NCBI GenBank assembly: GCA_002423205.1
Contig: DIUZ01000020.1
Location: forward strand, 39,480-103,479
DNA: 64,000 nt
Direction: 5' to 3'
Origin: Micavibrio sp. UBA6145
Lineage (GTDB): Bacteria > Pseudomonadota > Alphaproteobacteria > Micavibrionales > UBA1664
Made by a program: the position numbers and the translations under genes. This document shows positions 14,671 through 57,134 of this stretch, piece by piece. Position 1 is the first letter of the stretch. Every line of letters starts with the position of its first letter. Below the pieces are notes generated by a model that was not told where the DNA came from, made no database searches, and saw only the letters and a list, made by a program, of their open reading frames with translations.

Positions 14671-14951
14671 CCGGTCTTTAAGCCATAGTCAGGCTAAGCC
14701 CTTATATTTTCTGCATTTTATTACGAATCTGAAATAATGATCTGGCCATACCTTTGTAGGTTTTTGGCCCGGATTTTGTGCCTGTGGTGACGTAAAGCGC
14801 GAAATATGGGGTTTTCGGGTGAATTTAAGGGGGCTTTCTGTTTCCTTTTTAAGCTCAAAATTTGCTCAAAACCCATACTAAAGTTTAGGTCCTAAGTGCA
14901 TGATTTTCAAAATTAATTTCAGCTTTACCAATCCAGCGTAAACTTATCTTC

Positions 14952-17900: not shown

Positions 17901-20900
17901 TCGTCTGTTGCCAATATTGGTTTATGGAGCAATACGGGAACGATTACTGCCGGAAGCGCCTCGCTTGCTTTGCAGTCAGGCCGGGATTCTCTGGGCAACC
18001 GCGTTAATTTAAACCTGAACAATACATCCGATCTTGTTTTCCAGGGGGCGAGCTTCACTGGTGTTACCATCACGGGTTTTGGTGATGTTGTGGTCAACCG
18101 CGATATCACGTCCACAGGCAGCATCACGATTGCGGCGGAAGGCAGTATCACGAATAATGCGGTGGTGACTACAGGCGCTGCGGGCGCTCTTTCGTTTCGG
18201 GCGGCGACATCGTCGGTTGCGAATGTTGGTACCTGGACAAATAATGGCACGCTTTCTGTTGGAACGGGGACGCTTACCATTTCAGCAGGGGCGGACGGTT
18301 CTGGCGGCAGGCAGGATCTTGTGCTGAATAATGGATTTGTAACCAGGCAAGGCGCAAATTTCGGCTCTTTCACAGCGGTAGGATTCCGCGATATCACCCT
18401 TAATACGGATATCCTGTCCGCAGGCAGCGTTAACCTGACGGCAGAGCGTAACCTGACAGTCAATTCGGCGGTGACAACATCGCTCACCGGTGCTCTGCAT
18501 CTGCGTGCAGCCGGGGCACTTGTCACCAATCAAGGGGTTCTGACCTTAAATGCGCCTATCAGCACGGGCAGCAGCACCTTGGTGCTTTTGACGGGGCTTG
18601 ATACTACCGGCAACGCGACGACTGATCTTCTTATCAACAATGCGTTGTTGACCACGCAGAATGCAACTGTGGGCTCGATAAATATCTCGGGATTCCGTGA
18701 TCTTACAATTGATCGCGCCTTCAATTCTACCGGCTCCGTAACATTGACATCGTTGCGTGATCTAAATGTAAATGGACCGATCACATCATCCACTACATCA
18801 AATCTGACTTATACTGCGGGCAGGGATCTTGTCATTGGCGCAAGCCAGACGCTTACGAATTCAACATCTACAGCCGATATAGCCTTTTTGGCAGGCCGCC
18901 ATCTAACGATTAATAGCGGGGCTGTCATTAAATCCGGATTGATCGGAGCGACCACTATCCGTGCCGCGAATGCTGTCCTTACAAACCAGGGCGTTCTGAC
19001 GATCAATGGTACGATCAATGCCAGCACCGGCACCACAACACTTCTCAGCGGGCTTGATTTGTCGGGGAACCGTACAGCCGACTTCACTCTCAGCGACGCG
19101 ACGATGACTTACCAGGGCGCTGTGCAGGGGGCGCTTACGGTTACCGGTTTCCGCGATGTCACGGTTGCGCGTAATCTTACATCAAGCACCACGAATATCA
19201 CGGCCGAACGCAACCTGACTATTAATCCCGGCGTCAGCCTTACGGCGACGACAACCGGCACATTCACATTCAGGGCGGCTGGCGGCCTATCTACCAATAC
19301 AGGAACGCTTGTGTTATCTGGCGCCACGATCAGCGTGGGCACGGGGGCGCTCACCCTGGTCAGCGGTATGGATGAATCAGGCAATCGTACGGATCTTACA
19401 TTGGATAACAGCAACCTGACCTTTCAGGGGGCCAATATGGCTGCTTTGAGTCTGAGCGGGTTCCGCGACATCAATCTTGCGCGTGATATCACCATCGGCG
19501 GATCCAGCACCATTACCGCAGAGCGCAATCTGAATGTGGTGACCGGTGCCACTTTGACAACGAACATCAATACACTGGTTTTGCGGGCGGCGGGCAATAA
19601 CACTAACAATATTGGCGCCCTTACAATTGATGGCAATATCACTACCGGTGCGGCCTCGATCACGCTTGTGAGCGGTCTGAATGCCGATGGTACGCGTAAT
19701 GATCTTACGCTCAGCAACAGCAATTTCACTCTAAGTGGCGCGAATATGAACGCGCTGAGTATTTCTGGTTTCCGTGATGTGACTTTCGCCAGGAATATAA
19801 TGTTTAATGGTACACTGAGTGTGGTTGCGGAGCGCAACGTCAATGTCAATGGCGGCGTAAACCTTACCTATGGCGGCACCAATATCACCATGTCCCTGCG
19901 GGCAGGGGGTGCAACGTCCGTAAACGAGGGCGCGATCAACATTGACGGCGTTCTGACGGCTGGCACGGCGGGCACGCTTACGCTAGCAACGGGCACGGAT
20001 TCCACCGGTGCGCGTACCCAAGACCTTGTGCTGGACAGTGCCCGTTATGTGATGACGGGGTCCGATATCGGCCGTCTGACCGTCACGGGATACAGGGATA
20101 TTACTTTTGCATCCGATTTTACGTTCGGTAACATTATAAGCGTGATAGCCGAGCGTAACCTGACGGTAAACAGCGGCGTCACACTTACGGGCGGGCCGAC
20201 CCAGGGCTTCCTTTTGCGTGCAGGGGGCGAAAACTCCGTAAATATCGGTACATTGACCCTGGACGGAAAAATCATTTTTGGCAGCGGCGGTACATTTACG
20301 CTTGGCAGCGGTTTTGATAATTCCGGTCTGACGCGCGGCGCAGATCTTGTGCTTAACAGCAGCAATTTTGCGATGCGGGGTGCCACTGCGGGGGGGCTTG
20401 CCATCTCTGGTTTCCGTGATGTCACGCTGAACACTAATTATAACTCCGCCAGCACAATAAACGTTGTTGCCGACCGTAATCTGACGATTGGCAATGGCGT
20501 TACGCTGTCCAGCGGCGGTACAGGCAGCATGATTTTGGCAGCCGGTGGCACGGATGGAGTGAATGCAGGTATCCTGACGAATAACGGCACTGTGCGTGTG
20601 GTCGGTGCCCTGTTTGCGCAATCCGGTGCCAATTCACTGGATGCCGGTGCAGACTTTGTGTGGGACGGCGTGCGTTACAGTATGCTGAATTCCAGCCTAT
20701 CGGGCGGCGTAACAGTAAAGGGTTTCCGCGACGCCATATTCAGTGCAAATATTTCTGCTACTGGTCATTCCGACATTACGGCGCAGCGTGACGTGATCAT
20801 TGATTCCGGGGTCATGTATAATGTAGTGGGAAATTGGAATTTTACCGCTGCCGCTGCCAATAACGTAACGCAGAACCGTGGTCAGTTCATCAATAACGGC

Positions 20901-21926
20901 ACACTCGTGATGGGCGGTACCGGTTCTATCAGTCTTTCGTCGGGTAAGGATGCAGGCGGATTGTACAGTGACTTCATCTGGGACAATGGCGGCCGCTACG
21001 TTACGCCGAATGCGAATATTTCCGCTTTCTATCTGGCTGGTTTCCGTGACATCACAATTGCACGTGATATCACGGCAACCAGTCATGTTTACCTGAAGGC
21101 CGACCGTAACGTTACGATTGCCAGCGGCACGACGGTCCGGGCAGGTACGACGACCAAGCTTACCGCGGCCAATAGTGATGTAAACGCGCAAGGCGTTATC
21201 CGTGTTGATGGGACGCTGTATTACGGCGGCAGCGGAGAGTTGACATTCCGGAGCGGTTTGGATTCCAGCGGCAACCGCGTTGACCTGGATCTGGGCAGCA
21301 GCAACTTTATCAAGAATGCCGGTGCAGGATATTCCGAGGTTGAGATCAAGGGCTTCCGTGACGTAACCATTCCGGTCAGCCTGTCTTCATCGTCGACGAT
21401 ATTGCTTGAGGCTTACCGCACGCTGACGCTGGACGCGGGCGCTACGCTGAGCAGTGCCACCGGCACAACCGTTTACGCTAAAGACGCCTTTGTAAACAAT
21501 GCCGGCGCAGGCGTATTTGGCGGGGCGGGGCGCTGGCTGGTGTACAGCACATCGGCGCAGAAAAACGTCAATGGTGGTTTGGCTTACGGTTTTCAGGCAT
21601 TTAGCTGTACATATGGCGCAAGCTGCGCCGGGCTTTCGGGCAGCGGCAGTGGCTTCATTTATACAATCAGTGATCCAGACAGCATCCTGGCCAGAATCCG
21701 TAATATTACGGGCGGTGGATTGCCGGATACGATTGTCCGCACCTCGCAGAATTTCAGCGCCAATCATGCGGCCACGCCCGGTACATCGACGACACCGTCC
21801 AATTTTGGCAGCAATGTAATAGTCAATGCGGTATCACCCGCGGGCGGTTACGTGCAGACCGATTACATGCTGACATTCTCGCCGGATCTGGCACAGCGTT
21901 TCGAGCTTGAAGAGTGGTTGTTCTGA
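14952..21926 (+). CDS. Very large TpsA exoprotein: filamentous-haemagglutinin-type TPS secretion domain, long beta-helical repeat region and an unknown C-terminus
   Basis: 2324 aa with a signal peptide (…SAFMPHAHA/NP). TPS domain at aa ~28-150 (ITQHSDKAIIDWRGFDIAHDETTNFYQPSSSSIIVNRV...GRLNANGNVIIINQNGLVFG). Then Gly/Thr/Asn/Ser-rich repeats follow. Confidence 0.85.
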   Translation: MELRRQLLTTSALSVMVASAFMPHAHANPIDGVVSAGSADIASNGKTLDITQHSDKAIIDWRGFDIAHDETTNFYQPSSSSIIVNRVHSSQASQIDGRLNANGNVIIINQNGLVFGAGAVVDVHGLVVSTSDLDNTAFMTNAPVRFTQPGNVNAAIVNHGTITAHDAGLVGFVAPHVENHGVITANLGRVHLATGDKATVDFYGDGLMEVEASDSLQNQILNQTGTIIADGGKIALSASAGGEVVTSIINAQGTIRAQSVGVHNGEIVIGAKKNGKSKVNIAGSVDASSATGKGGKITVTADHIALKPTANLNASGLTGGGTIKVGGDRHGQGATPNAKTLTVEQGSYIANNALDLGDGGETVLWSDLVTYFAGGISGTGGANGGDGGFVEVSGKDHLEYQGHVDLSANEGYDFGNLLLDPSDIIISSGGDTGGSFTSGTYTASAGASVINTATLQSQITAANVTISTAGGTGGNGDITFANSVAFTTTSRTLTLNADRDIVFNASAAWTAGNGGFTMTAARDILFNANVSANGSGSLSAIAQRNVTVGNGVTVRSASSGGTILRAAGGVITNTGVLTNNGIISVGTGTLSLISGLDTLGERADISLDGVNLLYTGATTGSTGVTGFRDVTIGRNFSATGSLTIQAERHLTINSGVTLSTTSTGNINLKASNTAGINGLGYLSNSGTVSAGTGSFTLASGVDGSGNRPDLVLNSSLYSTGATVTGVGVTGFRDITVARNFTSTGSITISAERDLTINTGTALTAGTAGSMLLKAAATSIANAGVLTLNGSLTLGTGTLNLQSGLDTLGNRADLVLNGTNTSIIGANVGTTVITGFRDVTVNRNLISALSVNISAERNLTIGSGITVATGAAGGMTLRASTTAGIGGTGVLNNNGTVSTGTGTFVLLSGLDTLGERVDLNLNNATWVSQGASHTGISLTGFRDITVNRDFTTTGSITMSAERHFTNNANLTSGAASSMLLRAASSSVANIGLWSNTGTITAGSASLALQSGRDSLGNRVNLNLNNTSDLVFQGASFTGVTITGFGDVVVNRDITSTGSITIAAEGSITNNAVVTTGAAGALSFRAATSSVANVGTWTNNGTLSVGTGTLTISAGADGSGGRQDLVLNNGFVTRQGANFGSFTAVGFRDITLNTDILSAGSVNLTAERNLTVNSAVTTSLTGALHLRAAGALVTNQGVLTLNAPISTGSSTLVLLTGLDTTGNATTDLLINNALLTTQNATVGSINISGFRDLTIDRAFNSTGSVTLTSLRDLNVNGPITSSTTSNLTYTAGRDLVIGASQTLTNSTSTADIAFLAGRHLTINSGAVIKSGLIGATTIRAANAVLTNQGVLTINGTINASTGTTTLLSGLDLSGNRTADFTLSDATMTYQGAVQGALTVTGFRDVTVARNLTSSTTNITAERNLTINPGVSLTATTTGTFTFRAAGGLSTNTGTLVLSGATISVGTGALTLVSGMDESGNRTDLTLDNSNLTFQGANMAALSLSGFRDINLARDITIGGSSTITAERNLNVVTGATLTTNINTLVLRAAGNNTNNIGALTIDGNITTGAASITLVSGLNADGTRNDLTLSNSNFTLSGANMNALSISGFRDVTFARNIMFNGTLSVVAERNVNVNGGVNLTYGGTNITMSLRAGGATSVNEGAINIDGVLTAGTAGTLTLATGTDSTGARTQDLVLDSARYVMTGSDIGRLTVTGYRDITFASDFTFGNIISVIAERNLTVNSGVTLTGGPTQGFLLRAGGENSVNIGTLTLDGKIIFGSGGTFTLGSGFDNSGLTRGADLVLNSSNFAMRGATAGGLAISGFRDVTLNTNYNSASTINVVADRNLTIGNGVTLSSGGTGSMILAAGGTDGVNAGILTNNGTVRVVGALFAQSGANSLDAGADFVWDGVRYSMLNSSLSGGVTVKGFRDAIFSANISATGHSDITAQRDVIIDSGVMYNVVGNWNFTAAAANNVTQNRGQFINNGTLVMGGTGSISLSSGKDAGGLYSDFIWDNGGRYVTPNANISAFYLAGFRDITIARDITATSHVYLKADRNVTIASGTTVRAGTTTKLTAANSDVNAQGVIRVDGTLYYGGSGELTFRSGLDSSGNRVDLDLGSSNFIKNAGAGYSEVEIKGFRDVTIPVSLSSSSTILLEAYRTLTLDAGATLSSATGTTVYAKDAFVNNAGAGVFGGAGRWLVYSTSAQKNVNGGLAYGFQAFSCTYGASCAGLSGSGSGFIYTISDPDSILARIRNITGGGLPDTIVRTSQNFSANHAATPGTSTTPSNFGSNVIVNAVSPAGGYVQTDYMLTFSPDLAQRFELEEWLF
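16412..21560 (+). repeat. In-frame array of ~16 diverged tandem super-repeats (~103-107 aa each) inside tpsA
   Basis: G-[FY]-[RG]-D anchor codons lie at 16827, 17139, 17451, 17766, 18075, 18381, 18690, 19146, 19458, 19767, 20088, 20409, 20721, 21039 and 21351. The spacings are 312, 312, 315, 309, 306, 309, 456, 312, 309, 321, 321, 312, 318 and 312 nt. Unit consensus is roughly GFRD(I/V)T(V)xR(N/D)(F/I)TSTGSITISAERNLTINSG... . DNA identity between units is only ~60% by eye. Confidence 0.8.
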
Positions 21927-23043: not shown

Positions 23044-23853
23044 ATGACCGACACCCCTATTGATCCGAAATCCGGTATCCAGTCCCTTCTCAACGTCATG
23101 GCGCGTTTGCGTAATCCTGACGGCGGTTGCCCGTGGGATCTTGAGCAGACGTTTGAAACCATCACGCCGTATACGATCGAAGAAGCCTATGAAGTGGCCG
23201 ACGCGGTTGAGCGCGGTGACATGAAAGACTTCAAGGAAGAGCTTGGTGATCTGTTGCTCCAAGTCGTATTCCAAAGTCAGATCGCGAACGAACAAGGTAT
23301 TTTTGATTTTGACGCGGTCGCGCGCGCCGAGGCCGACAAACTGGTCAGCCGCCATCCGCATGTATTTGGCGACCAGAGCGCCAAGGATTCTGCGGCGGTC
23401 ATGGATATCTGGAACGCGCAGAAGGACAAGGAAAAGAAAGACAAAACCACGCATCTGCTGGATGCAATCACACGCGGGCTCCCTGCCCTTATGCGTGCGC
23501 AGAAAATTCATCGCAAGGTGGCTAAAGTCGGGTTTGACTGGCCCAGGGTGGACGATGTTTTCGCCAAGCTGGACGAAGAAGTGGCGGAATTGCGTGAAGC
23601 GGCGGTGCAAGGTGATGCAAAACACATTGAGGAAGAGCTTGGGGACATCCTGTTTGTAAGCTGTGTACTGGCCGAACATCTGGGTGTGGACGCTGAAACG
23701 GCGCTGCGCTCAGCCAATAATAAATTTATACGTCGTTTCAATGGTGTAGAAGATCTTCTTAAGGCGAATTCTCAGGAATTGGGCAAGGCCAGCCTTGAAG
23801 ACATGGATGCGCACTGGAATACCGTCAAAAAAGACGAAAAAAGCGCCGCATAA
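23044..23853 (+). CDS. mazG: Nucleoside triphosphate pyrophosphohydrolase MazG
   Basis: 269 aa with tandem MazG domains (GCPWDLEQTFETITPYTIEEAYEVADA ... EELGDLLLQV; EEVAELREA...EELGDILF). Confidence 0.9.
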   Translation: MTDTPIDPKSGIQSLLNVMARLRNPDGGCPWDLEQTFETITPYTIEEAYEVADAVERGDMKDFKEELGDLLLQVVFQSQIANEQGIFDFDAVARAEADKLVSRHPHVFGDQSAKDSAAVMDIWNAQKDKEKKDKTTHLLDAITRGLPALMRAQKIHRKVAKVGFDWPRVDDVFAKLDEEVAELREAAVQGDAKHIEEELGDILFVSCVLAEHLGVDAETALRSANNKFIRRFNGVEDLLKANSQELGKASLEDMDAHWNTVKKDEKSAA

Positions 23854-33462: not shown

Positions 33463-34605
33463 TCAGGAATACTTATATTGACCGCTTTCGAGGAAACCCA
33501 CGTTCTGTTCGCGGATTTTGGCGGCTGCGTCGTCGTACAGGAAGGGTAAAAAGGCGTATCTTTTGCCTGATGTGACGCGGGAAACCTCATGCAGGAGCGA
33601 GCATGAGAACACGCAGGCACCCCCAACCGGTGGTTTAAAGGATTTCATGCCATATTCCGGGAAAGAAACTTCGCCGCCGTCGAATTCTGCATTCAGGTTG
33701 ATGGATACGGCAAAACGGCGATGTGCCGTGCCCTTCGTTGTGTTGTCGCGGTGCGCGCGGAAATGCCCCTTGGTCGCGCTATCGTAACATCCGACAAGGT
33801 AGCGTTCCATGCGGGTCACTTCGTATTGATGGACCTTTAAAATTTCCGGCACGATGCGGCGGATGACTTTTTGCTGAATGACGGTTTTCAGGGCTTCGTC
33901 CTGAATTTCAAAGTCAGACCGGCGTTTATGTCCGTAATCGGTGACGCTGATGGTCTTGCCGTCTTTTTCACGCATGAAACCGGAATCCGTGCCGCCGTCA
34001 GCCAGGTACAGATCGATCAGATGCTGGCAGAATTCGGATTCGAAAACGTTTGGAAGAATGAAGACCGGAGCCTGCACTTCAAAGCCGGGATATTTATTCA
34101 CATCGGGTAGCGTCTTCAGATACGCGGCGACGTCGTGACGTTCGCTGCCATCGGGTTTGACCGCGAAGACTTTGCGCACGCGCATGGTGGGATCGATGAC
34201 AAACCAGACCGGGCGCAGTGTAATCTTGTCTGCGCCTTCCGGCATTTCGGTGGGGGTTGATCCGTAGAGTTTGCCGATTTTGCCGTCGATGTCCCAGAAA
34301 TAACGGATACCGGGCATTTGTTCGGCGACGCGCTTTTCTTTTTCGTCGTTCGCATCATGCGTTACGCCGAAGAATGCGATTTTGTCGTCGTTGAATAGTT
34401 CGCGGTACTCGCTCAGGATTTTGAGCATGTTCTGCCCCGCAGGCTGGCCCGCGGACAGGAAAAAACACATGACAATGTAACGGCCGGCGGCGGTGTCGAA
34501 GTTGTAATCTTCGTTTGAGCTGCTGCGCTGGCGGAACCACGGTGCCGGGTCGCCCGCTTCAAGGCGTTTGAACTTAAAGGCTTTTTCGGGCGCTTTTGTA
34601 TCCAT
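33463..34605 (-). CDS. Fusion of a degenerate redoxin/AhpC-TSA-like domain and a 2OG-Fe(II) oxygenase (prolyl-4-hydroxylase-like) domain
   Basis: 380 aa. The N-half reads GDPAPWF...RYIVMCFFLSAG...IAFFGVT...GKIGKLYG. The C-half has HxD...H ligands (FRAHRDNT...SLLHEV) and GKRYAFLPFLY. Confidence 0.6.
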   Translation of the reverse strand: MDTKAPEKAFKFKRLEAGDPAPWFRQRSSSNEDYNFDTAAGRYIVMCFFLSAGQPAGQNMLKILSEYRELFNDDKIAFFGVTHDANDEKEKRVAEQMPGIRYFWDIDGKIGKLYGSTPTEMPEGADKITLRPVWFVIDPTMRVRKVFAVKPDGSERHDVAAYLKTLPDVNKYPGFEVQAPVFILPNVFESEFCQHLIDLYLADGGTDSGFMREKDGKTISVTDYGHKRRSDFEIQDEALKTVIQQKVIRRIVPEILKVHQYEVTRMERYLVGCYDSATKGHFRAHRDNTTKGTAHRRFAVSINLNAEFDGGEVSFPEYGMKSFKPPVGGACVFSCSLLHEVSRVTSGKRYAFLPFLYDDAAAKIREQNVGFLESGQYKYS

Positions 34606-36118: not shown

Positions 36119-37546
36119 TTAGAAGTGAATGGCGCGGCCATAGGCTGACAACACGCTTTCATGCATCATTTCCGACAGTGTCGGGTGGGCATAGACAGTG
36201 TGCATGAATTCGGCTTCGGTCAGTTCGTTGGTCTTACCAAGCACGTAACCCTGGATAAGTTCGGTGACTTCTGCACCGACCAGATGCGCGCCCAGCAATT
36301 CGCCGGTCTTGGCATCGAACACGGTTTTGATCAGACCTTCCGGTTCGCCGAGTGCAATCGCCTTGCCATTGCCGATGAACGGGAATTTACCGACTTTGAC
36401 GGTGTAGCCTTTTTCCTTCGCGGCCTTTTCCGTCAGGCCGACCGATGCCACCTGCGGTGTACAATAGGTGCAGCCGGGGATGTTTTCTTTTTTCATCGGA
36501 TGAACGTCTTTGAGGCCTGCGATTTTCTCAACGCAGATGATGCCTTCGTGTGACGCCTTATGCGCCAGCATCGGCGCACCGGCAACGTCGCCGATGGCAT
36601 AGACGCCAGGTTCACCGGTTTGCAGATACTGGTCCGTAACGATGAAGCCGCGGTCGACTTTGACCTTGGTGTTTTCAAGGCCGAGGTTTTCGGTGTTGGC
36701 GACAACGCCAACGGCCATGATGATGCGGTCCGCGGTCAGTTTTTCAACTTTGCCGCCGACTTCGACATGCGCGGTGACGTTGTTCGCGCCCTTATCAAGT
36801 TTTTGCAGCTTGGCACCGGTCAGGATTTTCATACCGCCCTTTTCCAGCTGCTTGCGGGCGATGGCAGAAATCTCTTCGTCTTCCACCGGCATGATGCGGT
36901 CAACGGCTTCGATCACCGTTACGTCCGCACCCATGTTGCGGTAGAAGGATGCAAATTCGATACCGATCGCGCCGGAGCCGACGACGATCAGGGATTTCGG
37001 CATTTCAGTCGGCACCATCGCTTCGCGGTAGGTCCAGACCAGTTTTTTGTCCGGCTCAAAGCCCGGGATGACACGGGCGCGTGCGCCGGTTGCGATGATA
37101 ATGTGCTTGGCGGTGATGATTTCGGTTTTCTCGACACCCTTCACGCCTTCCAGCCATTTGGACGGGCTGACTTCAATCTTGCCCTTGCCCTGCAATTTTG
37201 CGAGGCCCATGAGCACGGTGATCTTGTTTTTCTTCATCAGGTGGCCGATGCCGCCCGTAAGTTGTTTGGATACGGCGCGTGAGCGTTCAACGATTTTCTT
37301 GAAATCGAAGGTGACTTTCTCGGCCTTGAATCCGTACTGGTCGAGATTGTGCAGAAGGTGGTTGATCTCAGATGATTTCAGCAAGGCCTTGGTCGGGATG
37401 CAGCCCCAGTTGAGGCAGATGCCGCCGAGATGGCTGCCTTCGACCACGGCGACCTTCATGCCCAGTTGCGCGGCACGGATGGCGGCGACATAACCGCCGG
37501 GACCGGCACCGATTACAACGATGTCAAAAGAGGTTTCAGCGGTCAT
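36119..37546 (-). CDS. lpdA: Dihydrolipoyl dehydrogenase (E3 of the PDH complex)
   Basis: 475 aa with FDIVVIGAGPGGYVAA, the redox disulfide GGICLNWGCIPTK, and the C-terminal HAHPTLSE. Confidence 0.92.
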   Translation of the reverse strand: MTAETSFDIVVIGAGPGGYVAAIRAAQLGMKVAVVEGSHLGGICLNWGCIPTKALLKSSEINHLLHNLDQYGFKAEKVTFDFKKIVERSRAVSKQLTGGIGHLMKKNKITVLMGLAKLQGKGKIEVSPSKWLEGVKGVEKTEIITAKHIIIATGARARVIPGFEPDKKLVWTYREAMVPTEMPKSLIVVGSGAIGIEFASFYRNMGADVTVIEAVDRIMPVEDEEISAIARKQLEKGGMKILTGAKLQKLDKGANNVTAHVEVGGKVEKLTADRIIMAVGVVANTENLGLENTKVKVDRGFIVTDQYLQTGEPGVYAIGDVAGAPMLAHKASHEGIICVEKIAGLKDVHPMKKENIPGCTYCTPQVASVGLTEKAAKEKGYTVKVGKFPFIGNGKAIALGEPEGLIKTVFDAKTGELLGAHLVGAEVTELIQGYVLGKTNELTEAEFMHTVYAHPTLSEMMHESVLSAYGRAIHF

Positions 37547-49205: not shown

Positions 49206-50600
49206 TTAGATATGAATCGGGCGGCCGTCGACGGCGAGTGCCGCTTCCTTGACCGCTTCGTTCAGTGTCGGGTGTGCGTGGCAGATGCGTGCGATGTCTT
49301 CCGCCGAACCGCCGAACTCCATGATCGTGACGATTTCCGCAATCAGCGTACCCGCTTCGGGGCCGAGGATATGCGCGCCCAGAACGCGGTCGGTCGTGGC
49401 ATCCGCCAGAATTTTGACGAACCCGTCGGTCGAGCCGATGGCACGTGCGCGGCCGTTGGCCGTGAACGGGAATTTGCCGACCTTGTAGGCGGTGCCGGAT
49501 TCTTTCAACTGTTCTTCGGTTTTGCCGACCGATGCGATTTCAGGCCATGTGTACACAACACCCGGGATAGCATCGTAATCGATGTGGCCGGATTGACCCG
49601 CCAGCATTTCAGCCAGAACGACGCCCTCGTCTTCGGCCTTATGCGCGAGCATCGCGCCCCTGATCACGTCACCGATGGCGTAGATGCCAGGCACGCTGGT
49701 TTCGAAGTGATCGTTCACATCCACGCGGCCACGATTGTCGAGCGTGACGCCGACTTTATCAAGGCCCAGCGTTGCTGTGTGCGCTTTGCGGCCGACAGCC
49801 ACAAGGACGACATCGGCGTTCAGCGTTTCCGCCTTGCCGCCGGCGGCGGGCTCGACGGTCAGGGCGACGCCCTTCTTGCCGGTTTCGGCACCGGTGCATT
49901 TGCTGGACAGCTTAAATACGATGCCCTGTTTTTCAAGGACGCGTTGCGCCTGCTTGGCGGTTTCGAGGTCCATGCCGGGCAGGATGCGGTCGAGATATTC
50001 AATCACGGTGACCTTGGCACCCAGACGACGCCAGACGGTGCCGAGTTCGAGACCGATGACACCCGCACCGATGACGATCATTTCGTCCGGCACTTTTTCC
50101 AGCGTCAATGCGCCGGTGGAGGACACGATTTGTTTTTCGTCGATCGTAATGCCCGGCAGCGGCGTTACGTCGGAGCCGGTGGCAATGACAATGTGTTTGG
50201 CGGCGTATGTTTCGTCGCCGACCTTGACCTGACCGGCGGCAGGGATTGATCCCTCACCCTTCAGCCAGTCGATCTTGTTTTTCTTCATCAGGAATTCGAT
50301 GCCCTTGGTGTTGTCCGCAACGACCTTGGACTTGAACGCCATCATGGCGGCTAGATCGAGTTTCAGCGAACCGATCTTGATGCCGAAATCGGCGTAGTGA
50401 TGACCGGCACCTTCGAATTTTTCAGATGATGACAGCAGCGCCTTGGACGGTATGCAGCCGACATTCAGACATGTGCCGCCGAGCGTGGCGCGCTTTTCAA
50501 CGATCGCGGTTTTCATGCCCAGCTGGGCACAACGGATGGCGCAGACATAACCGCCGGGGCCGGAACCGATTACGATGACATCATAGGATTTTTCGGACAT
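49206..50600 (-). CDS. lpdA: Dihydrolipoyl dehydrogenase, second paralogue
   Basis: The ORF track starts at 50636. The ATG at 50600, preceded by AAGGAA, gives [18 protein letters not shown]...[13 protein letters not shown]...HAHPTLNE. Confidence 0.9.
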
Positions 50601-50683
50601 GGGATTCCTTGGGGCACAATTGAACAGGACGCCCAAAGAATTAGCGGATCAGGCCCCTTTTCACAAGGCCCTGAAACGGGGGT

Positions 50684-53620
50684 TTACGCGAGGCGCAGGG
50701 CCCGTTTTTTGTCCGGGGCTTTGCGCGGTTCTGTCCAGGGGGCGTTGGCAGGAATATAGATTTCGCCGGGTTTGAGCGCCTTTTGCATGGCGGCGCGTGA
50801 TTTCATAAGAATATCCAGCGCCTGTTCCTGTCTGTCAACGACATGGACGTTGAGGCGAATCATTTCGTCATTGCTCATCATATTTATAAGCGGATCAAAG
50901 ACGCGGATACCGTCAATCTGTTCATTCACGATGACGAGCGGGCGATTGGACACCGGCATGATGCCCCATTGGCGCATCAGGATGGATGCGGCGATTTCCT
51001 GGATGGAACCGGCACCGCCGGCCATCAGGATTTCGGCATCCGTGTTCATCAGGTGCGCCATGCGCTGTTCGATCACTTCGAAAATGCGCGCGTCGTCATT
51101 GTCCTTGTGCCAGCCGCCTTCGCGTTCAAACGTGTCGTGGCACTGATAGGACGTGACATGGTTGCGGGGCATTTCTTCGCGGCGATCGCGACGCCAGTCG
51201 CGGCGCGCCTGGTGGACGCCTTCGGATGTGGCGACCATCAGGCCTTCTTTACCGCCACCATTGATCAGCGAAAAACCGTTCTGCGCGAGGCTATAGGCAA
51301 AAGCATGCGCGTTTTTGCACGCGTCGGTTTCCTTGCCCAGCGAGGCGGAGCAGTAGACGGTCACGCGATACAGATCCGCGGGCATTTCGATGCCGTCGTC
51401 TTTTTCAACGATGCCCTTTTCCGTGATTTTCGGGCGGATATAACTGGTGTTGAATTTTTTTAGGCCCCTGCGCAGCGCGGTGCCTGATGTATACACGCCC
51501 ATGATGTCATCCTGGCGATTATTGAGCAGCGGCGTCTGCGCCAGATGGTGGAAGATATTTTCCTGGGCCGCCCATGATGTATTGCCTGTCAGATGGCCAA
51601 AGAATTTAGCCTTGATCGCGCGGTCATCGACCTGTTTTCCCACCACGAGAGAGTAATACAGAAGTGTCTTAAGCCATTTAATACCTGAGAAATTATAGAG
51701 TTTGTGGCTGTCCTCGGTCAGCAGGAAACCGTCGGCTTCTTTATACAAGGCGCGCAAGCGATTCAGAACGCTTTCGGCCTTCTGGCGATGCGTGTCGCCA
51801 GTGCGGGTTGTGTCACGCAACAGGGGGCCTTTGTTGCGGAATTCAGCCATGCTGAAACGGCTGCCGTTGCCGGACATCATTTTAAATGCACCGGTAACAA
51901 TGCGATGCATACGACGATTGCCGTGGCCGTAAATGTCTGCAAACAGGGTGTGAAGACTTGCGATACGGTAGTTTTGCTTACCGCTTGCGGCGGCATTGAA
52001 TTCCAGATTGAAATTCGAAAGATTTTTGCTGTGCTCGCTCACGCCGGTTACGTCGCTGAGCGCGCGGATTGAACCGACCACTTCGGAGTGCGTTTCGATG
52101 TAGCCATCGATTTCAGCCTTTGTGCGGCGCTGTTTCGGTGGTAAGTGGCCGTCGAAAGCCGTCGGCACTAGATAATGGTCCGTCTGGAAAGCCTGAATTC
52201 GCTTGCCGCGCGCATCAAGGGTCGGCGATGGGTGGGTGCGTGCCGTTGATTGCACCTTTGCCATGGTTGCGATGTAACGCAGGTTCTGCTCTTTCAGCCA
52301 GTCAAGGCGCACCGCAATGTGGCAGGCGGTGTCATTGACTGTAAGGTCTGCAGCTTTGGCGTTTTCTTTGCTTTCAATTTCCGTGACTGCGCCGGCAAGC
52401 ATGTCTTCAAACAGACGGGTGCGCGACACGGTTTTAAGGATGCCTGCCAGTTCGGCCCCGGGACCCGGTTTCAGCAGATACGGGTTGAGCAATGGGCGGA
52501 TGGGATCAAACGCGCGCGCATCCATGATGCGGTAGTCGAGGAATTCAAGACCGCGATCATCAAACATCAGCCAGACATTTTCAGGGCGCTTGCCATTCGT
52601 GCACAGGGCCGCGGCCACTTTGTCGTAGCCTTCATCGCGGATACGGTCGACAACGGATTGCAGCTTTTCCATGTTGTTGCCCTCAAGGCTGCAACTGGTT
52701 TCGTCTGCTTCGCGGGGTTTTACATCAATGACCGAGTTAAGCGAGTAAACGTTGACGCGCGCGCGCAGCGTGGCAAAGGCCGCGCTGATTTCCTTGGATT
52801 TGTGCGGCGAACCTGATGCCACGTAAATCGTGTCCCCGGGCATGATGCTGGCATCCATTCGGTCACAGCCTGGGGGGGTGTGTCTATCTGGCAGGTTTTT
52901 GAGAACCTGAAGCGTCGATGACGTGCCTTCATCGGCGGTTTCATTGCCACCAGGATAATGGGTGATGTGAACGCCGTACGCTGCCAGAAGCGGATCGTTC
53001 GCGCTTATGCCAATGGCGTCCAGCAAAGGATTCCAGAAACCGTTATGCGTATTCTGGATGATCAGTGCGGTATCTTTTGCGCGTCCATCGTTTGTAAGTT
53101 TTGCATAGAGGATGTGCAGCGCCTGACGCAGGCTGTGCATGTCGCCACGCGTAAGGATCAGGGCGCCTGCGTCTTCGCATTGTTCAAGCGGATCGCTTGT
53201 GTCGAAATTGCCGGTGCGCGAGAGATTGCGGAAATATGGATCGAGGCCAAGGACCTTGTAATTAAAAACGCCGTCATTGCTGGCGGCGCTATCGAGAACT
53301 TGTCGGCGTTGGGTCAGTTCCTGCGAAATCGGATGAACCCATGTCTTGCCCTTATATCGCGCGAGCGCTGTGTCGGACGGGTCTTCACCTGGGAGATAAA
53401 CATACGACGCAGGCGCTTCGGTCAGGAACCCGTCATTCCACATTCGGGAAAGGAGAGGGATAAGTTCTTTGGGATATTCGGTCGGTTTATCCCCGCGGCA
53501 GATTGCCTCCACGGGTCGGAGAAGAAGCTGGATTTTTGCGGCCACCTGTTCTGCGGTGGCGCCAGTCAGTATTCTTTGTCCCGTCACGTCCCTGTTTCCC
53601 ATGAGCCAGTAGTTATGCAA
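50684..53620 (-). CDS. 978-aa multidomain nucleotide-processing protein: degenerate LOG-like N-region, Ham1/ITPase-like middle domain, C-terminal LOG (TIGR00730-type) domain
   Basis: The C-terminal aa ~752-935 read VYCSASLG...LINGGGKEGLM...AEILMAGGAGSIQEI...PLVIVN...FDPL. The middle aa ~263-521 have Ham1-like blocks (IYVASGSPHKSKEI, EADETSCSLEGNNMEK, LMFDDRGLEF, FQTDHYLVP...TKAEID...THSE). The N-terminal aa ~150-205 read ALILTRGDMHSLRQAL...ALIIQNTHNGFWNPLLD. The start is ambiguous, either TTG at 53620 or ATG at 53602. Confidence 0.55.
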   Translation of the reverse strand: MHNYWLMGNRDVTGQRILTGATAEQVAAKIQLLLRPVEAICRGDKPTEYPKELIPLLSRMWNDGFLTEAPASYVYLPGEDPSDTALARYKGKTWVHPISQELTQRRQVLDSAASNDGVFNYKVLGLDPYFRNLSRTGNFDTSDPLEQCEDAGALILTRGDMHSLRQALHILYAKLTNDGRAKDTALIIQNTHNGFWNPLLDAIGISANDPLLAAYGVHITHYPGGNETADEGTSSTLQVLKNLPDRHTPPGCDRMDASIMPGDTIYVASGSPHKSKEISAAFATLRARVNVYSLNSVIDVKPREADETSCSLEGNNMEKLQSVVDRIRDEGYDKVAAALCTNGKRPENVWLMFDDRGLEFLDYRIMDARAFDPIRPLLNPYLLKPGPGAELAGILKTVSRTRLFEDMLAGAVTEIESKENAKAADLTVNDTACHIAVRLDWLKEQNLRYIATMAKVQSTARTHPSPTLDARGKRIQAFQTDHYLVPTAFDGHLPPKQRRTKAEIDGYIETHSEVVGSIRALSDVTGVSEHSKNLSNFNLEFNAAASGKQNYRIASLHTLFADIYGHGNRRMHRIVTGAFKMMSGNGSRFSMAEFRNKGPLLRDTTRTGDTHRQKAESVLNRLRALYKEADGFLLTEDSHKLYNFSGIKWLKTLLYYSLVVGKQVDDRAIKAKFFGHLTGNTSWAAQENIFHHLAQTPLLNNRQDDIMGVYTSGTALRRGLKKFNTSYIRPKITEKGIVEKDDGIEMPADLYRVTVYCSASLGKETDACKNAHAFAYSLAQNGFSLINGGGKEGLMVATSEGVHQARRDWRRDRREEMPRNHVTSYQCHDTFEREGGWHKDNDDARIFEVIEQRMAHLMNTDAEILMAGGAGSIQEIAASILMRQWGIMPVSNRPLVIVNEQIDGIRVFDPLINMMSNDEMIRLNVHVVDRQEQALDILMKSRAAMQKALKPGEIYIPANAPWTEPRKAPDKKRALRLA

Positions 53621-53624
53621 ACTG

Positions 53625-53654
53625 GTTATAGAAAATTTATGCAGCTCTTGTCAA
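53625..53654 (-). promoter_or_regulatory. Possible sigma-70-type promoter (TTGACA-N18-TATAAC) immediately upstream of the 978-aa gene
   Basis: On the minus strand, TTGACA lies at 53654..53649 and TATAAC at 53630..53625. The -10 element ends only ~5 nt before the TTG at 53620, implying a leaderless or very short-leader mRNA. Confidence 0.3.
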
Positions 53655-53758
53655 AATCTGCTTTTGAAGTTTTTTACCCTGTTTTTCAGCCGCTTGCGAG
53701 TCCGCCAAGACCCCTTACTCACAGGGGGTTTTAACGGTTGGGAAAAGACCAATTTGAC

Positions 53759-54214
53759 TTAGGCCCCACCCCAGTCTTCAAGCCATAAATCAGGCTTTTC
53801 GTCGATAAACTTGCGACAAAGCGCAATGCAGTCCGGGTCGTTCACTTCAATCACTTCGACGCCGCGTTCGCGCAAAAGCACCTCGTTCCCGCTGGAATTG
53901 GTGGTGTCGCCGACGACGACTCGTTGAATCTTGAACTGCAGGATCGTGCCCGTGCACATCATGCAGGGGCTTAAGGTCGTGTACATGGTGGTATTGCGGC
54001 GGCTTTTCATACGGCCTGCGGCGCGCATGGCGGCCATTTCGCCGTGGATGATGGGGTTACCCTCCTGGACCAGGGCGTTGTGCCCCTCACCCAGGATTTC
54101 GCCGGTTTCATTGTCAACGATGACGCCGCCAATGGGGCATCCGCCCTCGTTATAGCCTTTCAGGGCTTGTTCGTAGGCGCGGCGCATATACACTTCGTGG
54201 GATTGATATGTCAT
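53759..54214 (-). CDS. Fcy1-type cytosine deaminase (CDA/dCMP-deaminase zinc-binding fold)
   Basis: 151 aa that aligns by eye along its full length with yeast Fcy1 (EGGCPIGGVIV...GEGHN...IHGEMAAM...MYTTLSPCMMCTGTIL...VVVGD...CRKFIDEKPDLWLEDWG). HxE and PCxxC motifs are intact. Confidence 0.8.
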   Translation of the reverse strand: MTYQSHEVYMRRAYEQALKGYNEGGCPIGGVIVDNETGEILGEGHNALVQEGNPIIHGEMAAMRAAGRMKSRRNTTMYTTLSPCMMCTGTILQFKIQRVVVGDTTNSSGNEVLLRERGVEVIEVNDPDCIALCRKFIDEKPDLWLEDWGGA

Positions 54215-54235
54215 TGGTTTGTCTCCTGTTCACGC

Positions 54236-55204
54236 ATGGCTTTAGCAGATACCGCACTCATCCTTCAATACATGCAACAGGCCGTTGACGTCGTCCTGAC
54301 GGGCGAACATGCCGACAGCAAGGTTTCCGCCTGTGCTTTCCACCCGGAACAACCCGAGATTCCCGCCGTCGCCACGGTCAGCGCCCGCCCGGATTGCCTG
54401 AAAGGTCACTTTGCCTGGGATGCCCGCATCGGTGCGTCCAGCCAGTTTATTCATGCGGAGCTTGCCGCGCTTTTGAAATTCGGCGGCAATTTACGCGGTG
54501 CGCATGTCTGCGTGACCGATCCGTTCTGTCCCAACTGCGCCAAGAACATGGCCGAGGCCGGCGTGCGCGCCATCTATATCGACCATAAAGGCTTTCAGAA
54601 AGACTTCATCGCGCGGAATGGCGACGAATTCAAAACCATGTCCATGCTGATCGCTGAAAAGGCGGGCATCAGTGTTTTTGAAGTCAACCGCAAGGCGGGC
54701 ACGGTTACGCCGATTTTGGACCAGCAGGCAACCACTCGCCCCGCATCTACGGCAATTGAATTTTTTGATATTGCGGACGGCATGACGCTGGAAAGTGCTA
54801 TGCAGACATTTAAAAACCGTCTTGGCACGCGCGAAGCATGGACGCTGGCGTTTGTTAAAGAACGCGACGGCAGTCCGCGCGGGCTTCTGGTGTTCGAGGC
54901 ATTGCCGCCGGGCATCACACCCGAAGATTACCGCACGCGCGGCACGGATACCGGCAAATACCGTTTTCCCATCGACCCGCTGACACGGCTTGGCATCATT
55001 ACGCGACGCATGGGTATGACATTGCTCGATCCGCGTATAGGTTGCGCACGGCTTCCGTCGTCGCGCTCGCTTGTCAACGCGCTGGGCATGGGTATATCAA
55101 ACCTGTTACTGGCCTCGGCCCAGCCAGACCATGATCCGCTCGGTCTGGCCGCAATCACCCTGTTGCGGGATAAAAAGATTTTGAACGTATCGGAGATGAC
55201 ATGA
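54236..55204 (+). CDS. Two-domain protein: N-terminal dCMP/ComEB-type deaminase domain plus a ~170-aa uncharacterised C-terminal domain
   Basis: The ORF track starts at 54044, inside the opposite-strand deaminase. I use the ATG at 54236, with 54272 as an alternative. Motifs are FIHAELAAL (HAE) and DPFCPNCAKNM (PCxxC). The C-terminal half has no motif I recognise. Confidence 0.55.
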   Translation: MALADTALILQYMQQAVDVVLTGEHADSKVSACAFHPEQPEIPAVATVSARPDCLKGHFAWDARIGASSQFIHAELAALLKFGGNLRGAHVCVTDPFCPNCAKNMAEAGVRAIYIDHKGFQKDFIARNGDEFKTMSMLIAEKAGISVFEVNRKAGTVTPILDQQATTRPASTAIEFFDIADGMTLESAMQTFKNRLGTREAWTLAFVKERDGSPRGLLVFEALPPGITPEDYRTRGTDTGKYRFPIDPLTRLGIITRRMGMTLLDPRIGCARLPSSRSLVNALGMGISNLLLASAQPDHDPLGLAAITLLRDKKILNVSEMT

Positions 55205-55665
55205 AAAAACTTTTGATGATTGCCGCGGCCGTTCTGGCTTTAAGCGCCTGTGACCAAAACCCGCAGGAGGCCCGCGAGCGCGCGACCAATGCCAATGAGG
55301 CCGTTGAAGTCCCGTCTGTTTCAGGCGCATCGACACCGGCGCAAGCAACACCGCAGGCGCAATCAGGCGTCGTTGGCGGCGCGATGGTGAACACGCCCGT
55401 GTCCAGCAGCTCACCCGCCATGCAAAACACGCCTGCGCCAACCGTTGCGCAGGCAACGGCGCAGGCTGGCTCACCCGCAAGCACATGCGGGGCGGATCAG
55501 TCATGGGTAGGGCAGCCGCTAAAATCCATCGACTTAAGCAAAATCACCGGCGTGATCCGGACAATTTATCCGAACCAGCCGGTGACGATGGATTACAGCG
55601 ATCAGCGCCTGAACATCATTCTTGAGCCCGGCACCGATAAGGTGCTGGAAGTGAAGTGCGGTTAA
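55201..55665 (+). CDS. Lipoprotein with a C-terminal peptidase-inhibitor-I78-like domain
   Basis: 154 aa with a lipobox (VLALSAC/D) and a low-complexity Ala/Pro/Gln linker. The C-terminal region reads [12 protein letters not shown]...[37 protein letters not shown]. Its ATG overlaps the upstream stop (ATGA). Confidence 0.55.
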
Positions 55666-57134
55666 CGCGCGAGCGTTTTTGCCGCTTCCTTCGTGGTATG
55701 CACAGCCGACGATGAGCGTTGCACCGCCTCGGCGATATTGACCACATTCTCGCTGATGGACGTTACGGCATCTGATGCGTGCTGCATGTTGGAAGAAATT
55801 TCGCGTGTCACGGCTGATTGCTCTTCCACTGCGCTTGCGGTGCCGCTGACGTAACTTTCGACGGATTCGATGCTTTTCTTGATTTCGTTGAGCGCATTGA
55901 CGACGCCTTCAGATACTTTCTGAATGCCTTCGATTTCACGCGAAATCTGTTCCGTGGCATCGGCTGCCTGCTTGGCCAGGTTTTTAACCTCGTCGGCAAC
56001 GACGGCAAATCCTTTGCCAGCGTCGCCCGCACGCGCTGCCTCAATCGTGGCATTGAGCGCAAGAAGGTTAATCTGTCCCGCAATGTTTTGAATGAGGGTG
56101 ATGATACCGCCCATGGATACGGCGGCGGCGTCGAGTTTTTGTGTCGACTGATCGGCCCGGGCCGTCTCGATCATCGCGCTTTTCACGGCTTCCAGTGACT
56201 TGACCATGCTGGACGAAATCTCCTGCACGGATGCGGTCATTTCCTCCGCGCCGGTTGCGATGGCCTGCATGTTGCTGGCGCTTTGCTGGGCGGCATGTGC
56301 CGCGTTTGATGCCTGACGATCCGTGTCTGTAACGGCAAGATCGATTTCACCAATGTTGCTGTCGATCAGTTTCTGGACATTCTCCAGCAATTCAATCTGT
56401 TTGGTGATGTCGGTGGCATATTTGACGACTTTGAAGGGTTTGCCATTCATATCCATGATCGGGTTATACGATGCCTCGATCCAGATCACCTTGCCGCCTT
56501 TGCCTATGCGCTTGTATTGGCCGGCGTCATATTTTCCACTGGCAAGCTTGCGCCAGAATTCGGCGTATTCGGGTGAGCGTGCATAGACCGGGTCTACAAA
56601 CATGGAATGGTGCTGGCCCTGTACTTCATCCAGCGTGTAGCCGACGGCGTTCAGGAAGTTGGGATTGGCGGTGATGATCGTTCCGTCGAGATTGAAATGG
56701 ATTACGGCCTGCGCCTTGTCGATGGCGGATAATTGACCCTCGGCGTCAGCGGCTTCAAGTTTTCGGGCCGTGATGTCGGTCGCAAATTTTACGACCTTGT
56801 ATGTCTTGCCGTTTTTGTCTTTGACCGGATTGTAGGTTGCCTGGATCCAGATTTCGCGCTGGCCTTTGCCAAAGCGTTTGTATTCGGCAGAATCGAAATT
56901 TCCGGCGGCCAGATTTTTCCAGAAATCGGCATATTCGGCTGACTGGGCATAGGCCGGGTCGACAAACATTCTGTGATGTTTGCCGCGCACTTCATCGAGC
57001 GTGTAGCCCATGGCGCTTAGAAAATTTTCGTTTGCCGTCAGGATCGTGCCGTCCGGCGTGAATTCAATGGCGGCCAGAGAGTGACCAATGGCGCGCAGCG
57101 TGTTCAACGCATGCGTTTTTTCTTTGCTAAACAA
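55662..57134 (-). CDS. Soluble methyl-accepting chemotaxis protein with tandem PAS domains
   Basis: 490 aa with no TM segment. Two ~120-aa PAS units are ~65% identical to each other ([27 protein letters not shown]... and [27 protein letters not shown]...). The MCP signalling domain reads [31 protein letters not shown]. Confidence 0.85.

Follow-up and report, generated by a model that had tools for sequence, protein, structure and literature searches.

Among the closest described systems to the genes considered here is one from yeast, in which HAM1 and LOG1 each make cells resistant to 5-fluorouracil (5-FU) and 6-N-hydroxylaminopurine (HAP) and are partly interdependent; on the basis of these genetics LOG was proposed to act downstream of Ham1p in the removal of aberrant nucleotides (PMC5940212). 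PpnN (YgdH), the pyrimidine/purine nucleotide 5'-monophosphate nucleosidase of E. coli, is a second point of comparison, with a LOG-type core inside a larger multidomain protein. A third is the anti-phage system Kongming, which consists of an adenosine deaminase (KomA), a dead Ham1 protein (KomB) and a SIR2 protein (KomC) (bioRxiv 10.1101/2024.12.20.629578). The present analysis concerns four neighboring genes in a 64,000-nucleotide stretch of the genome of Micavibrio sp. UBA6145 (contig DIUZ01000020.1, positions 39,480 to 103,479; hereafter the window, within which all coordinates are given). Two of these genes, encoding a cytosine deaminase and a very large Ham1-LOG fusion protein (hereafter the giant), form a two-gene accessory module of Micavibrio-like Alphaproteobacteria. 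The giant is an undescribed architecture assembled from known enzyme families and, as far as found, is confined to these bacteria.

The Micavibrio locus draws on the same three protein families as the yeast route of Ham1p, Log1p (YJL055W) and Fcy1p, for which the proposed order is also nucleoside triphosphate (NTP) pyrophosphatase, LOG N-glycosidase and free base (PMC5940212). In yeast, however, the three are small individual proteins encoded at unlinked loci and connected by genetic evidence, whereas the giant joins Ham1 and LOG in a single chain of ~970 amino acids (aa) with extra degenerate LOG-like regions, and the deaminase gene lies next to it. The fusion lends independent genomic support to the coupling of Ham1 and LOG. 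It would amount to 'Rosetta-stone' evidence for an idea that has so far rested on yeast genetics, namely that LOG enzymes stand directly downstream of Ham1-type pyrophosphatases in the irreversible removal of nucleotides from the pool, and that the ancestral function of LOG lay in this removal and not in cytokinin activation. It would also let the two-step reaction, its substrate range and channeling be measured in a single polypeptide.

PpnN and the giant are both expected to free bases and ribose 5-phosphate from nucleoside monophosphates (NMPs), but PpnN has no Ham1 domain, and the fold match of the giant to PpnN structures (6gfl, 9hs2) is weak (Foldseek E ~1e-3, target template modeling (TM) score ~0.35). 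Pfam matches in the giant are limited to the LOG, SLOG and Ham1 families, the families of the PpnN flanking domains not having been looked up by name. Kongming resembles the locus in placing a deaminase gene beside one for a Ham1 protein with a second catalytic module coupled to it, and the likeness ends there. The Kongming deaminase belongs to PF00962, whereas both deaminases of the Micavibrio locus belong to PF00383 (CDA); the catalytic Asp of the Kongming Ham1 protein is changed to His, whereas it is kept in the giant as D349; the partner module is SIR2 (KomC) in the one and LOG in the other; and Kongming lies in a defense island or mobile element, whereas the deaminase and giant genes lie in the core chromosome. 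No SIR2 match was found by Pfam scan in the giant or in its neighboring genes.

The reading that we favor, with a probability of roughly 0.45, is that the deaminase and the giant together dismantle nucleotides. The Ham1/ITPase-like domain of the giant would convert an NTP to the NMP and pyrophosphate, its C-terminal LOG domain would cut the N-glycosidic bond of the monophosphate to yield the free base and (deoxy)ribose 5-phosphate, and the partnered deaminase would turn free cytosine into uracil for re-use or excretion. The degenerate LOG-like N-terminal and middle regions would act as scaffold, oligomerization or regulatory modules. Cytosine nucleotides would account for at least part of the flux, and the module would control or clean the nucleotide pool, or supply ribose phosphate to metabolism. 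We infer these activities, the substrates (cytosine nucleotides, ribo or deoxy) and the physiological role from domain identities, the conservation of catalytic-type residues and gene-order statistics. To our knowledge there is no cytosine phosphoribosyltransferase, and cytosine is salvaged solely by deamination to uracil. The partnership with a deaminase makes sense if cytosine is one of the bases set free, since free cytosine would be a dead end unless deaminated; the tight pairing of the two genes predicts cytosine nucleotides among the substrates.

The giant gene occupies 50684..53602 on the minus strand and encodes 972 aa from an ATG at 53602. The mechanically called open reading frame (ORF) extends to a TTG at 53620 (50684..53620, 978 aa); the ATG is most likely the start because all homologues begin at that point. 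From its N-terminus the protein reads as a degenerate LOG domain, a Ham1/ITPase-like domain, a helical or degenerate-LOG linker and a canonical LOG domain. The first of these, residues 14-250 (52853..53563, minus strand), is a degenerate LOG/SLOG-like domain recognized by profile-profile comparison: it aligns with the C-terminal LOG domain of the family over 171 columns at a probability of 94% and E 9e-8 (hhalign). It has TRGDxHxLRQ in place of PGGxGTxxE and keeps LIIQNxxxFWxP, and the predicted local distance difference test (pLDDT) score of its model is mostly 80-90. This domain is missing from the short family members (~740-790 aa).

Residues 255-520 (52043..52840, minus strand) form the Ham1/ITPase-like domain, which carries insertions and is identified by fold and motifs. 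Foldseek matches it to 1vp2 (E 1.6e-5, target TM 0.72), 1k7k, 2pyu and 6wwd; these fold matches include TM0159, RdgB and a mycobacterial ITPase. The model of this region has a pLDDT of ~70-85. The top PDB match of the family profile is the dITP/XTP pyrophosphatase 6wwd with motifs in register, residues K268, E301, N309, K313 and D349 being so aligned. A Pfam Ham1 match at E<=0.01 is found in only 4 of 21 giant-family members; distant members show the canonical ITPase motifs VATGNRKKYNE and FDDSGL. Seven residues are invariant in 21 diverse members (K268, E301, N309, K313, D349, P381 and E384). The C-terminal serine motif of the domain is S506-E-V/M across the family, with the Ser nearly invariant and the H-R of ITPases not retained.

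The following region, residues 521-735 (51398..52042, minus strand), is helical and poorly modeled, with a pLDDT below 50 at residues 525-584 and 652-725. Its hhalign match to the N-terminal domain (probability 65%, E 6e-5) suggests that it may be a third, partial LOG-like remnant (ADGFLLTxDS...VGKQVxD...W). The canonical LOG-type domain spans residues 740-945 (50768..51385, minus strand) and is recognized by Pfam, TIGRFAM and Foldseek alike (PF03641 4e-6, PF18306 2.5e-5 and TIGR00730 1.3e-11). Against curated cut-offs the PF03641 score is just over (27.4 vs 27 bits) and the TIGR00730 score is under (44.6 vs 96.35 bits), and the domain is a divergent member of the LOG superfamily. LOG structures match it at target TM 0.75-0.83, among them 5zbk (E 4.4e-7, TM 0.80) and 3sbx (TM 0.83). 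The LOG motifs are present as GGGKEGLM, R847 and AGGAGSIQE869, the first Pro of PGGxGTxxE being replaced by Ala, and G782, G783, G787, R847, G863, G865 and E869 are invariant in the same 21 members. The domain is predicted to be a nucleoside-5'-monophosphate N-glycosidase. Over all 21 members, whose identity falls as low as 18%, the invariant positions are almost all of catalytic type and lie in the Ham1 and LOG domains.

The family is larger than quick searches suggest. An exhaustive hidden Markov model (HMM) search of 1.84 billion cluster representatives returned 298 giant clusters (50% identity) at E<=1e-3, and none of the representatives that were checked carries a name. A word-indexed search recovered only 9 homologues, and a 13-sequence profile run against metagenomes gave only 6 loci. 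Most homologues are 880-1010 aa long. Homologue searches identify all four genes of the locus as conserved genes, not chance ORFs.

The cytosine deaminase gene (53759..54214, minus strand) encodes 151 aa and matches PF00383 at 4.4e-25. In phmmer searches of the PDB its residues 10-149 match yeast cytosine deaminase (yCD; 1ysd, 1uaq, 1p6o) over the full length at 1e-40, compared with 2.6e-16 for TadA and 5e-11 for guanine deaminase (GuaD). The zinc and catalytic motifs HGE (HxE) and PCMMC (PCxxC) align to those of yCD, as does the base-binding Asn of GHN, and the lid DLWLEDWG stands opposite QDWFEDIG (W..ED); the yCD Phe of 'NFKS' falls opposite a gap in the alignment. By these sequence criteria the protein is assigned to the yeast Fcy1 type of cytosine deaminase, the kind specific for the free base. 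Orthology to TadA was considered and rejected, the score being 77.7 bits against an equivalog cut-off of 150.

The distribution of these genes across related genomes is revealing of which of them belong together. The genome scan was made with the family of dea2, the divergently transcribed gene for a deoxycytidine monophosphate (dCMP) deaminase-like protein next to the cytosine deaminase; it yielded 80 species loci, most of them titled Micavibrio, Alphaproteobacteria or 'Pseudobdellovibrionaceae' metagenome-assembled genomes. Among the 76 loci in which the presence of the giant and the deaminase could be determined, both genes are found in 14, the giant only in 7, the deaminase only in 1 and neither in 54. 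The deaminase lies beside the giant in 14 of the 15 loci that have it and is absent from 54 of 55 loci without the giant (Fisher p 2e-9 for the 76 dea2-anchored loci, not corrected for phylogeny). Wherever the two occur together, the deaminase gene immediately precedes that of the giant in the same orientation, 50-190 bp away, and the pairing holds in a divergent subfamily of 742-757 aa that lacks the N-terminal domain (L083, L085). The module also occurs in complete genomes, for example CP060260.1. The robust unit is thus the cytosine deaminase plus the giant. These observations lend real support to the chain of activities suggested in a preliminary description of the locus, running from Ham1 through LOG to Fcy1: the fusion, the invariant catalytic-type residues, the adjacency in 14 of 15 loci and a co-localization of the four genes that persists in the closest relatives down to 32% giant identity all speak for it, while its substrates stay at the level of prediction.

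The preliminary description had treated all four genes as one cluster, and this broader unit is not upheld. In the closest relatives (giant identity 92% to 32%) the order of all four genes is indeed kept, but so are the housekeeping flanks, and the synteny of uvrA, ugd, lpdA, DUF484 and xerC is largely lineage-wide. The conservation of the neighborhood holds for the nearest genomes and fails for the lineage as a whole; dea2 and the fourth gene, encoding a lipoprotein with a peptidase-inhibitor I78 domain, are distributed independently of the giant. The four genes are not one unit because dea2 occurs without the giant or the deaminase in 54 of the 76 loci and the I78 gene is bound to a clade: outside the nearest relatives (L001-L014, giant-less loci included) it is not found behind dea2. 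Thus dea2 is a separate lineage-wide gene anchoring a site where nucleotide-metabolism genes gather, with the I78 lipoprotein as its passenger in one clade.

This site lies between lpdA and dea2. In nearly all loci with a giant, lpdA is the next gene after it, and it borders the site in giant-less genomes as well. The space between lpdA and dea2 is empty in some species (~100-200 bp) and holds the deaminase and giant in others. Other occupants are a PfkB kinase transcribed in the same direction as dea2 (21 loci), sometimes accompanied by others of this list; CYTH-domain proteins (8) and a family of ~380-450-aa uncharacterized proteins (16); GMP reductase; an HD_3 protein; a nucleotidyltransferase together with an MBL-fold protein; or a dea2 paralogue; examples of such variable slots in the range L009-L088 are L012:7690-10001, L027:7735-9903 and L037:5816-9803. 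No substrate could be assigned to the PfkB kinase that often precedes dea2. The dea2-giant pair is retained where both outer flanks differ (L095, L096), and the giant stands alone in L092. In L097 (L097:6001-10596) a distant giant homologue of 1012 aa (P0240) is followed 43 bp later by an AMP nucleosidase (NF006142 E 1e-217), with neither deaminase nor dea2 nearby. The giant beside an AMP nucleosidase and the nucleotide-metabolism genes among the slot occupants both count in favor of nucleotide dismantling. The work defines, besides the fusion, a genomic site in Micavibrio-like bacteria at which nucleotide-metabolism genes are exchanged.

Several considerations weigh against the dismantling of nucleotides by this module. 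The activities assigned to the giant and the deaminase are read from sequence, and the Ham1-like domain falls below the Pfam gathering score (Ham1p_like, 17.2 vs 22.5 bits). ITPases such as RdgB and ITPA carry an S-H-R C-terminal specificity motif; because S-E-V stands in this place in the giant, the substrate of the Ham1-like domain, and even catalysis, is uncertain. Characterized Ham1 enzymes favor non-canonical purines over cytidine triphosphate (CTP). The giant lacks an adjacent cytosine deaminase in 7 of 21 loci, which means that the main product may be something other than cytosine, and the statistic for the association of the two genes ignores phylogeny. Finally, M. aeruginosavorus is reported to make its nucleotides de novo and to have no nucleotide transporters (PMC3189940), and a scavenging role is thus not required; the notion of a predator obliged to scavenge nucleotides is weakened by the same report.

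The chemistry proposed here may serve a different end. In a sanitation module the Ham1-like domain would remove non-canonical or modified (d)NTPs, LOG would destroy the monophosphates before they are re-phosphorylated and the deaminase would handle modified cytosines such as 5-methylcytosine. The present data cannot separate this from general dismantling because the chemistry is identical and only the substrate range differs. The resistance of yeast to 5-FU and HAP through HAM1 and LOG1, with LOG proposed downstream of Ham1p (PMC5940212), fits such a role, as does the divergent C-terminal Ham1 motif, which suggests an unusual substrate. Characterized Ham1 enzymes are house-cleaning enzymes, and the accessory occurrence of the module, in about a quarter of species, suits an optional protective function. 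On the other hand, no sequence feature points to a modified substrate and the window already encodes MazG, and we regard sanitation as somewhat doubtful. A narrower version, which we consider unlikely, ties sanitation to predation: the pathway would clean modified cytosine nucleotides (for example 5-methyl (d)CTP or (d)CMP) derived from the breakdown of prey nucleic acids. Hydrolysis of the modified NTP to the NMP would be followed by release of the base, and deamination of the modified cytosine would leave a harmless pyrimidine; in a related form, the Ham1-like domain would sense such a nucleotide and switch on LOG. If real, such a pathway would keep foreign epigenetic bases out of the DNA and RNA of the predator. 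Slightly less probable again is a purely sensory Ham1-like domain that allosterically activates LOG, making the giant a regulated nucleotide-pool valve. There are precedents in KomB of Kongming, a Ham1 protein turned sensor of a ligand, dITP (bioRxiv 10.1101/2024.12.20.629578), and in PpnN, a LOG-type nucleosidase under allosteric (ppGpp) control whose weak fold match to the giant comes at ranks 43-49; moreover, the two extra degenerate LOG-like regions could be regulatory. The catalytic Asp that is His in all defensive or sensor Ham1 proteins is, however, invariant here as D349, and the metal- and phosphate-binding residues are also retained.

Two further explanations are less likely still. 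The four genes might have no functional link and be neighbors merely through inherited synteny, as the equally conserved flanks (uvrA, ugd, lpdA, DUF484, xerC) and the independent distribution of dea2 and the I78 gene would allow. This is improbable given that the cytosine deaminase tracks the giant (14 of 15 loci, the divergent subfamily included), that the dea2-giant pair survives changed outer flanks in L095 and L096, and that every partner acts on nucleotides or bases. The preliminary description had also entertained a nucleotide-pool-depleting module, which in the form of an anti-phage defense would have the deaminases and the giant deplete (d)CTP or other nucleotides upon infection. We judge this very improbable. 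PADLOC gave no match for the giant, and the deaminases reach only 32.8 and 14.9 bits where the cut-off is 400 (NF041025/PADLOC dCTPase), so that their weak matches to anti-phage dCTP deaminase models, which might otherwise favor defense, are sub-threshold and align only a zinc motif of ~50 residues; the PADLOC-DB version is that of 2023, and systems described later lie outside its coverage. Variable presence at a single genomic site and the combination of deaminase and Ham1, which recalls Kongming, are features that a defense system could share. The genes nevertheless lie between housekeeping genes in the core chromosome with host-like GC content, their position is kept across an order-level lineage and the genes that take their place elsewhere encode metabolic enzymes; SIR2 and other effectors are missing, as is a PF00962 deaminase, and the catalytic Asp of Ham1 is intact. 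Phage-like genes 3-6 kb from the giant in L096 are the remaining point for defense. At L096:11575-15003, a LexA/S24-like repressor, a phage head-tail connector and T7-type capsid genes, 2.5-6 kb downstream of the giant homologue, resemble a prophage edge.

The product of dea2 (54236..55204, plus strand; 322 aa) belongs to a lineage-specific two-domain dCMP-deaminase-like family defined by this work, which among the loci recovered is restricted to Micavibrio-like bacteria. The start is placed at ATG 54236 because the longer mechanical ORF (54044..55204, plus strand, GTG start) would run into the cytosine deaminase gene, and homologues show nothing that corresponds to it. In the N-terminal CDA domain the zinc and catalytic motif is intact (HAE...CPNC), with H72, E74, C97 and C100 invariant, and the domain resembles dCMP deaminases (T4 Cd, human DCTD and the ComEB type of S. 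mutans) in its N-terminal HAE...PCxxC zinc site. Profile matches in the PDB are to T4 Cd (1vq2, 2e-9) and 4p9c (3e-8), and Foldseek matches the model, which has a pLDDT of 91, to human dCMP deaminase 2w4l at 1e-6. By sequence and fold, dCMP deaminases are thus its nearest characterized relatives, and conversion of dCMP to dUMP is the activity that this would imply. The protein differs from the ComEB type in a score far under the equivalog cut-off (24.6 bits vs 219.45), on which ComEB orthology was rejected, and in a C-terminal domain without zinc ligands (PSSRxLVN). Neither deaminase is therefore the tadA or comEB housekeeping orthologue for which the preliminary description had allowed. The C-terminal half is probably a degenerate second CDA fold, judging from its register and from weak whole-length fold matches to the two-CDA proteins APOBEC3G and CDADC1, the latter of which the two-CDA-like layout of dea2 resembles; direct comparison of the N and C halves gives a probability of only 7% (hhalign).

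The lipoprotein gene (55201..55665, plus strand; 154 aa) starts within the dea2 stop (ATGA overlap). Its product has the lipobox LSAC, a linker of low complexity and, C-terminally at residues 100-154, a peptidase-inhibitor I78 domain (PF11720, 2e-9; 37.8 bits vs a gathering score of 23.6). The ORFs of all four genes coincide exactly with those first listed for the locus, save for the two refined starts of the giant and dea2, and the domain identities first proposed for the four products were all borne out by Pfam, phmmer, Foldseek and motifs.

A spacer of 138 bp separates the stop codon of the cytosine deaminase from the TTG of the giant ORF at 53620, as originally given. Read from the sequence, this spacer region holds a promoter-like TTGACA-N18-TATAAC (53625..53654, minus strand) upstream of the giant, with which similar -35/-10 elements line up in the corresponding spacers of L001, L003 and L089. 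The consensus scan omitted this element because its last base is C; promoter and terminator counts in that scan were not above those of shuffled sequences, nor did it place a terminator in the spacer that separates the deaminase from the giant. The spacer has no RNA structure by folding (z -0.3), and an Rfam search over the whole window found no riboswitch or structured RNA there. Since lpdA almost always follows the giant closely on the same strand, transcription read-through from the giant into lpdA is possible. The start codons of the cytosine deaminase (minus strand) and dea2 (plus strand) are only 21 bp apart (54212-54238), and this spacing is short in several other loci too (for example ~25 bp in L021). 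Each promoter must therefore sit within the coding sequence of the other gene, a placement that could couple the regulation of the two deaminases.

The four genes have a GC content of 0.51-0.61, the same as their flanks, and the window as a whole is ordinary core chromosome of host-like composition. It also encodes comEC, lexA, the trp genes, tpiA, pyrG, mazG, hflX, ntrYX, lipA, a two-partner secretion pair, the pyruvate dehydrogenase operon, eno, kdsA, xerC, lpdA, ugd, uvrA and one tRNA. None of the canonical pyrimidine salvage genes upp, codB, cdd and udp adjoins the cluster, in agreement with the preliminary description, and pyrG lies ~38 kb away. The borders also proved to be those originally named, with lpdA on one side and a PAS-PAS-MCP chemoreceptor on the other (Pfam). 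The lpdA gene (dihydrolipoyl dehydrogenase; 49206..50636, minus strand) is a conserved anchor downstream of the giant and is not proposed as a member of the pathway. In distant Micavibrio loci sucB precedes this lpdA, and dea2 sits between the two in the opposite orientation. A second lpdA paralogue in the window (36119-37546, minus strand) ends the pyruvate dehydrogenase operon (E1 alpha, E1 beta and E2). The chemoreceptor (55662-57134, minus strand) has two PAS domains and an MCP signaling domain, with no family match pointing to a periplasmic sensor; it is found at the equivalent position in L005, L009 and L089 and is absent from L001, L003 and L008.

Three other features of the window may be recorded. 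MazG (23044-23853, plus strand) is a tandem-domain nucleotide pyrophosphohydrolase and a second house-cleaning NTP pyrophosphatase of the window; it is also near the cluster in L003 and L004. The two-partner secretion pair (12907-21926, plus strand) comprises a ShlB/FhaC-type transporter (587 aa) and, after it, a protein of 2324 aa whose only Pfam match is a TPS secretion domain at the N-terminus. Adjoining lipA at 33463-34605 (minus strand) is an unusual 380-aa fusion of an AhpC/TSA-redoxin domain and a 2-oxoglutarate (2OG)-Fe(II) oxygenase.

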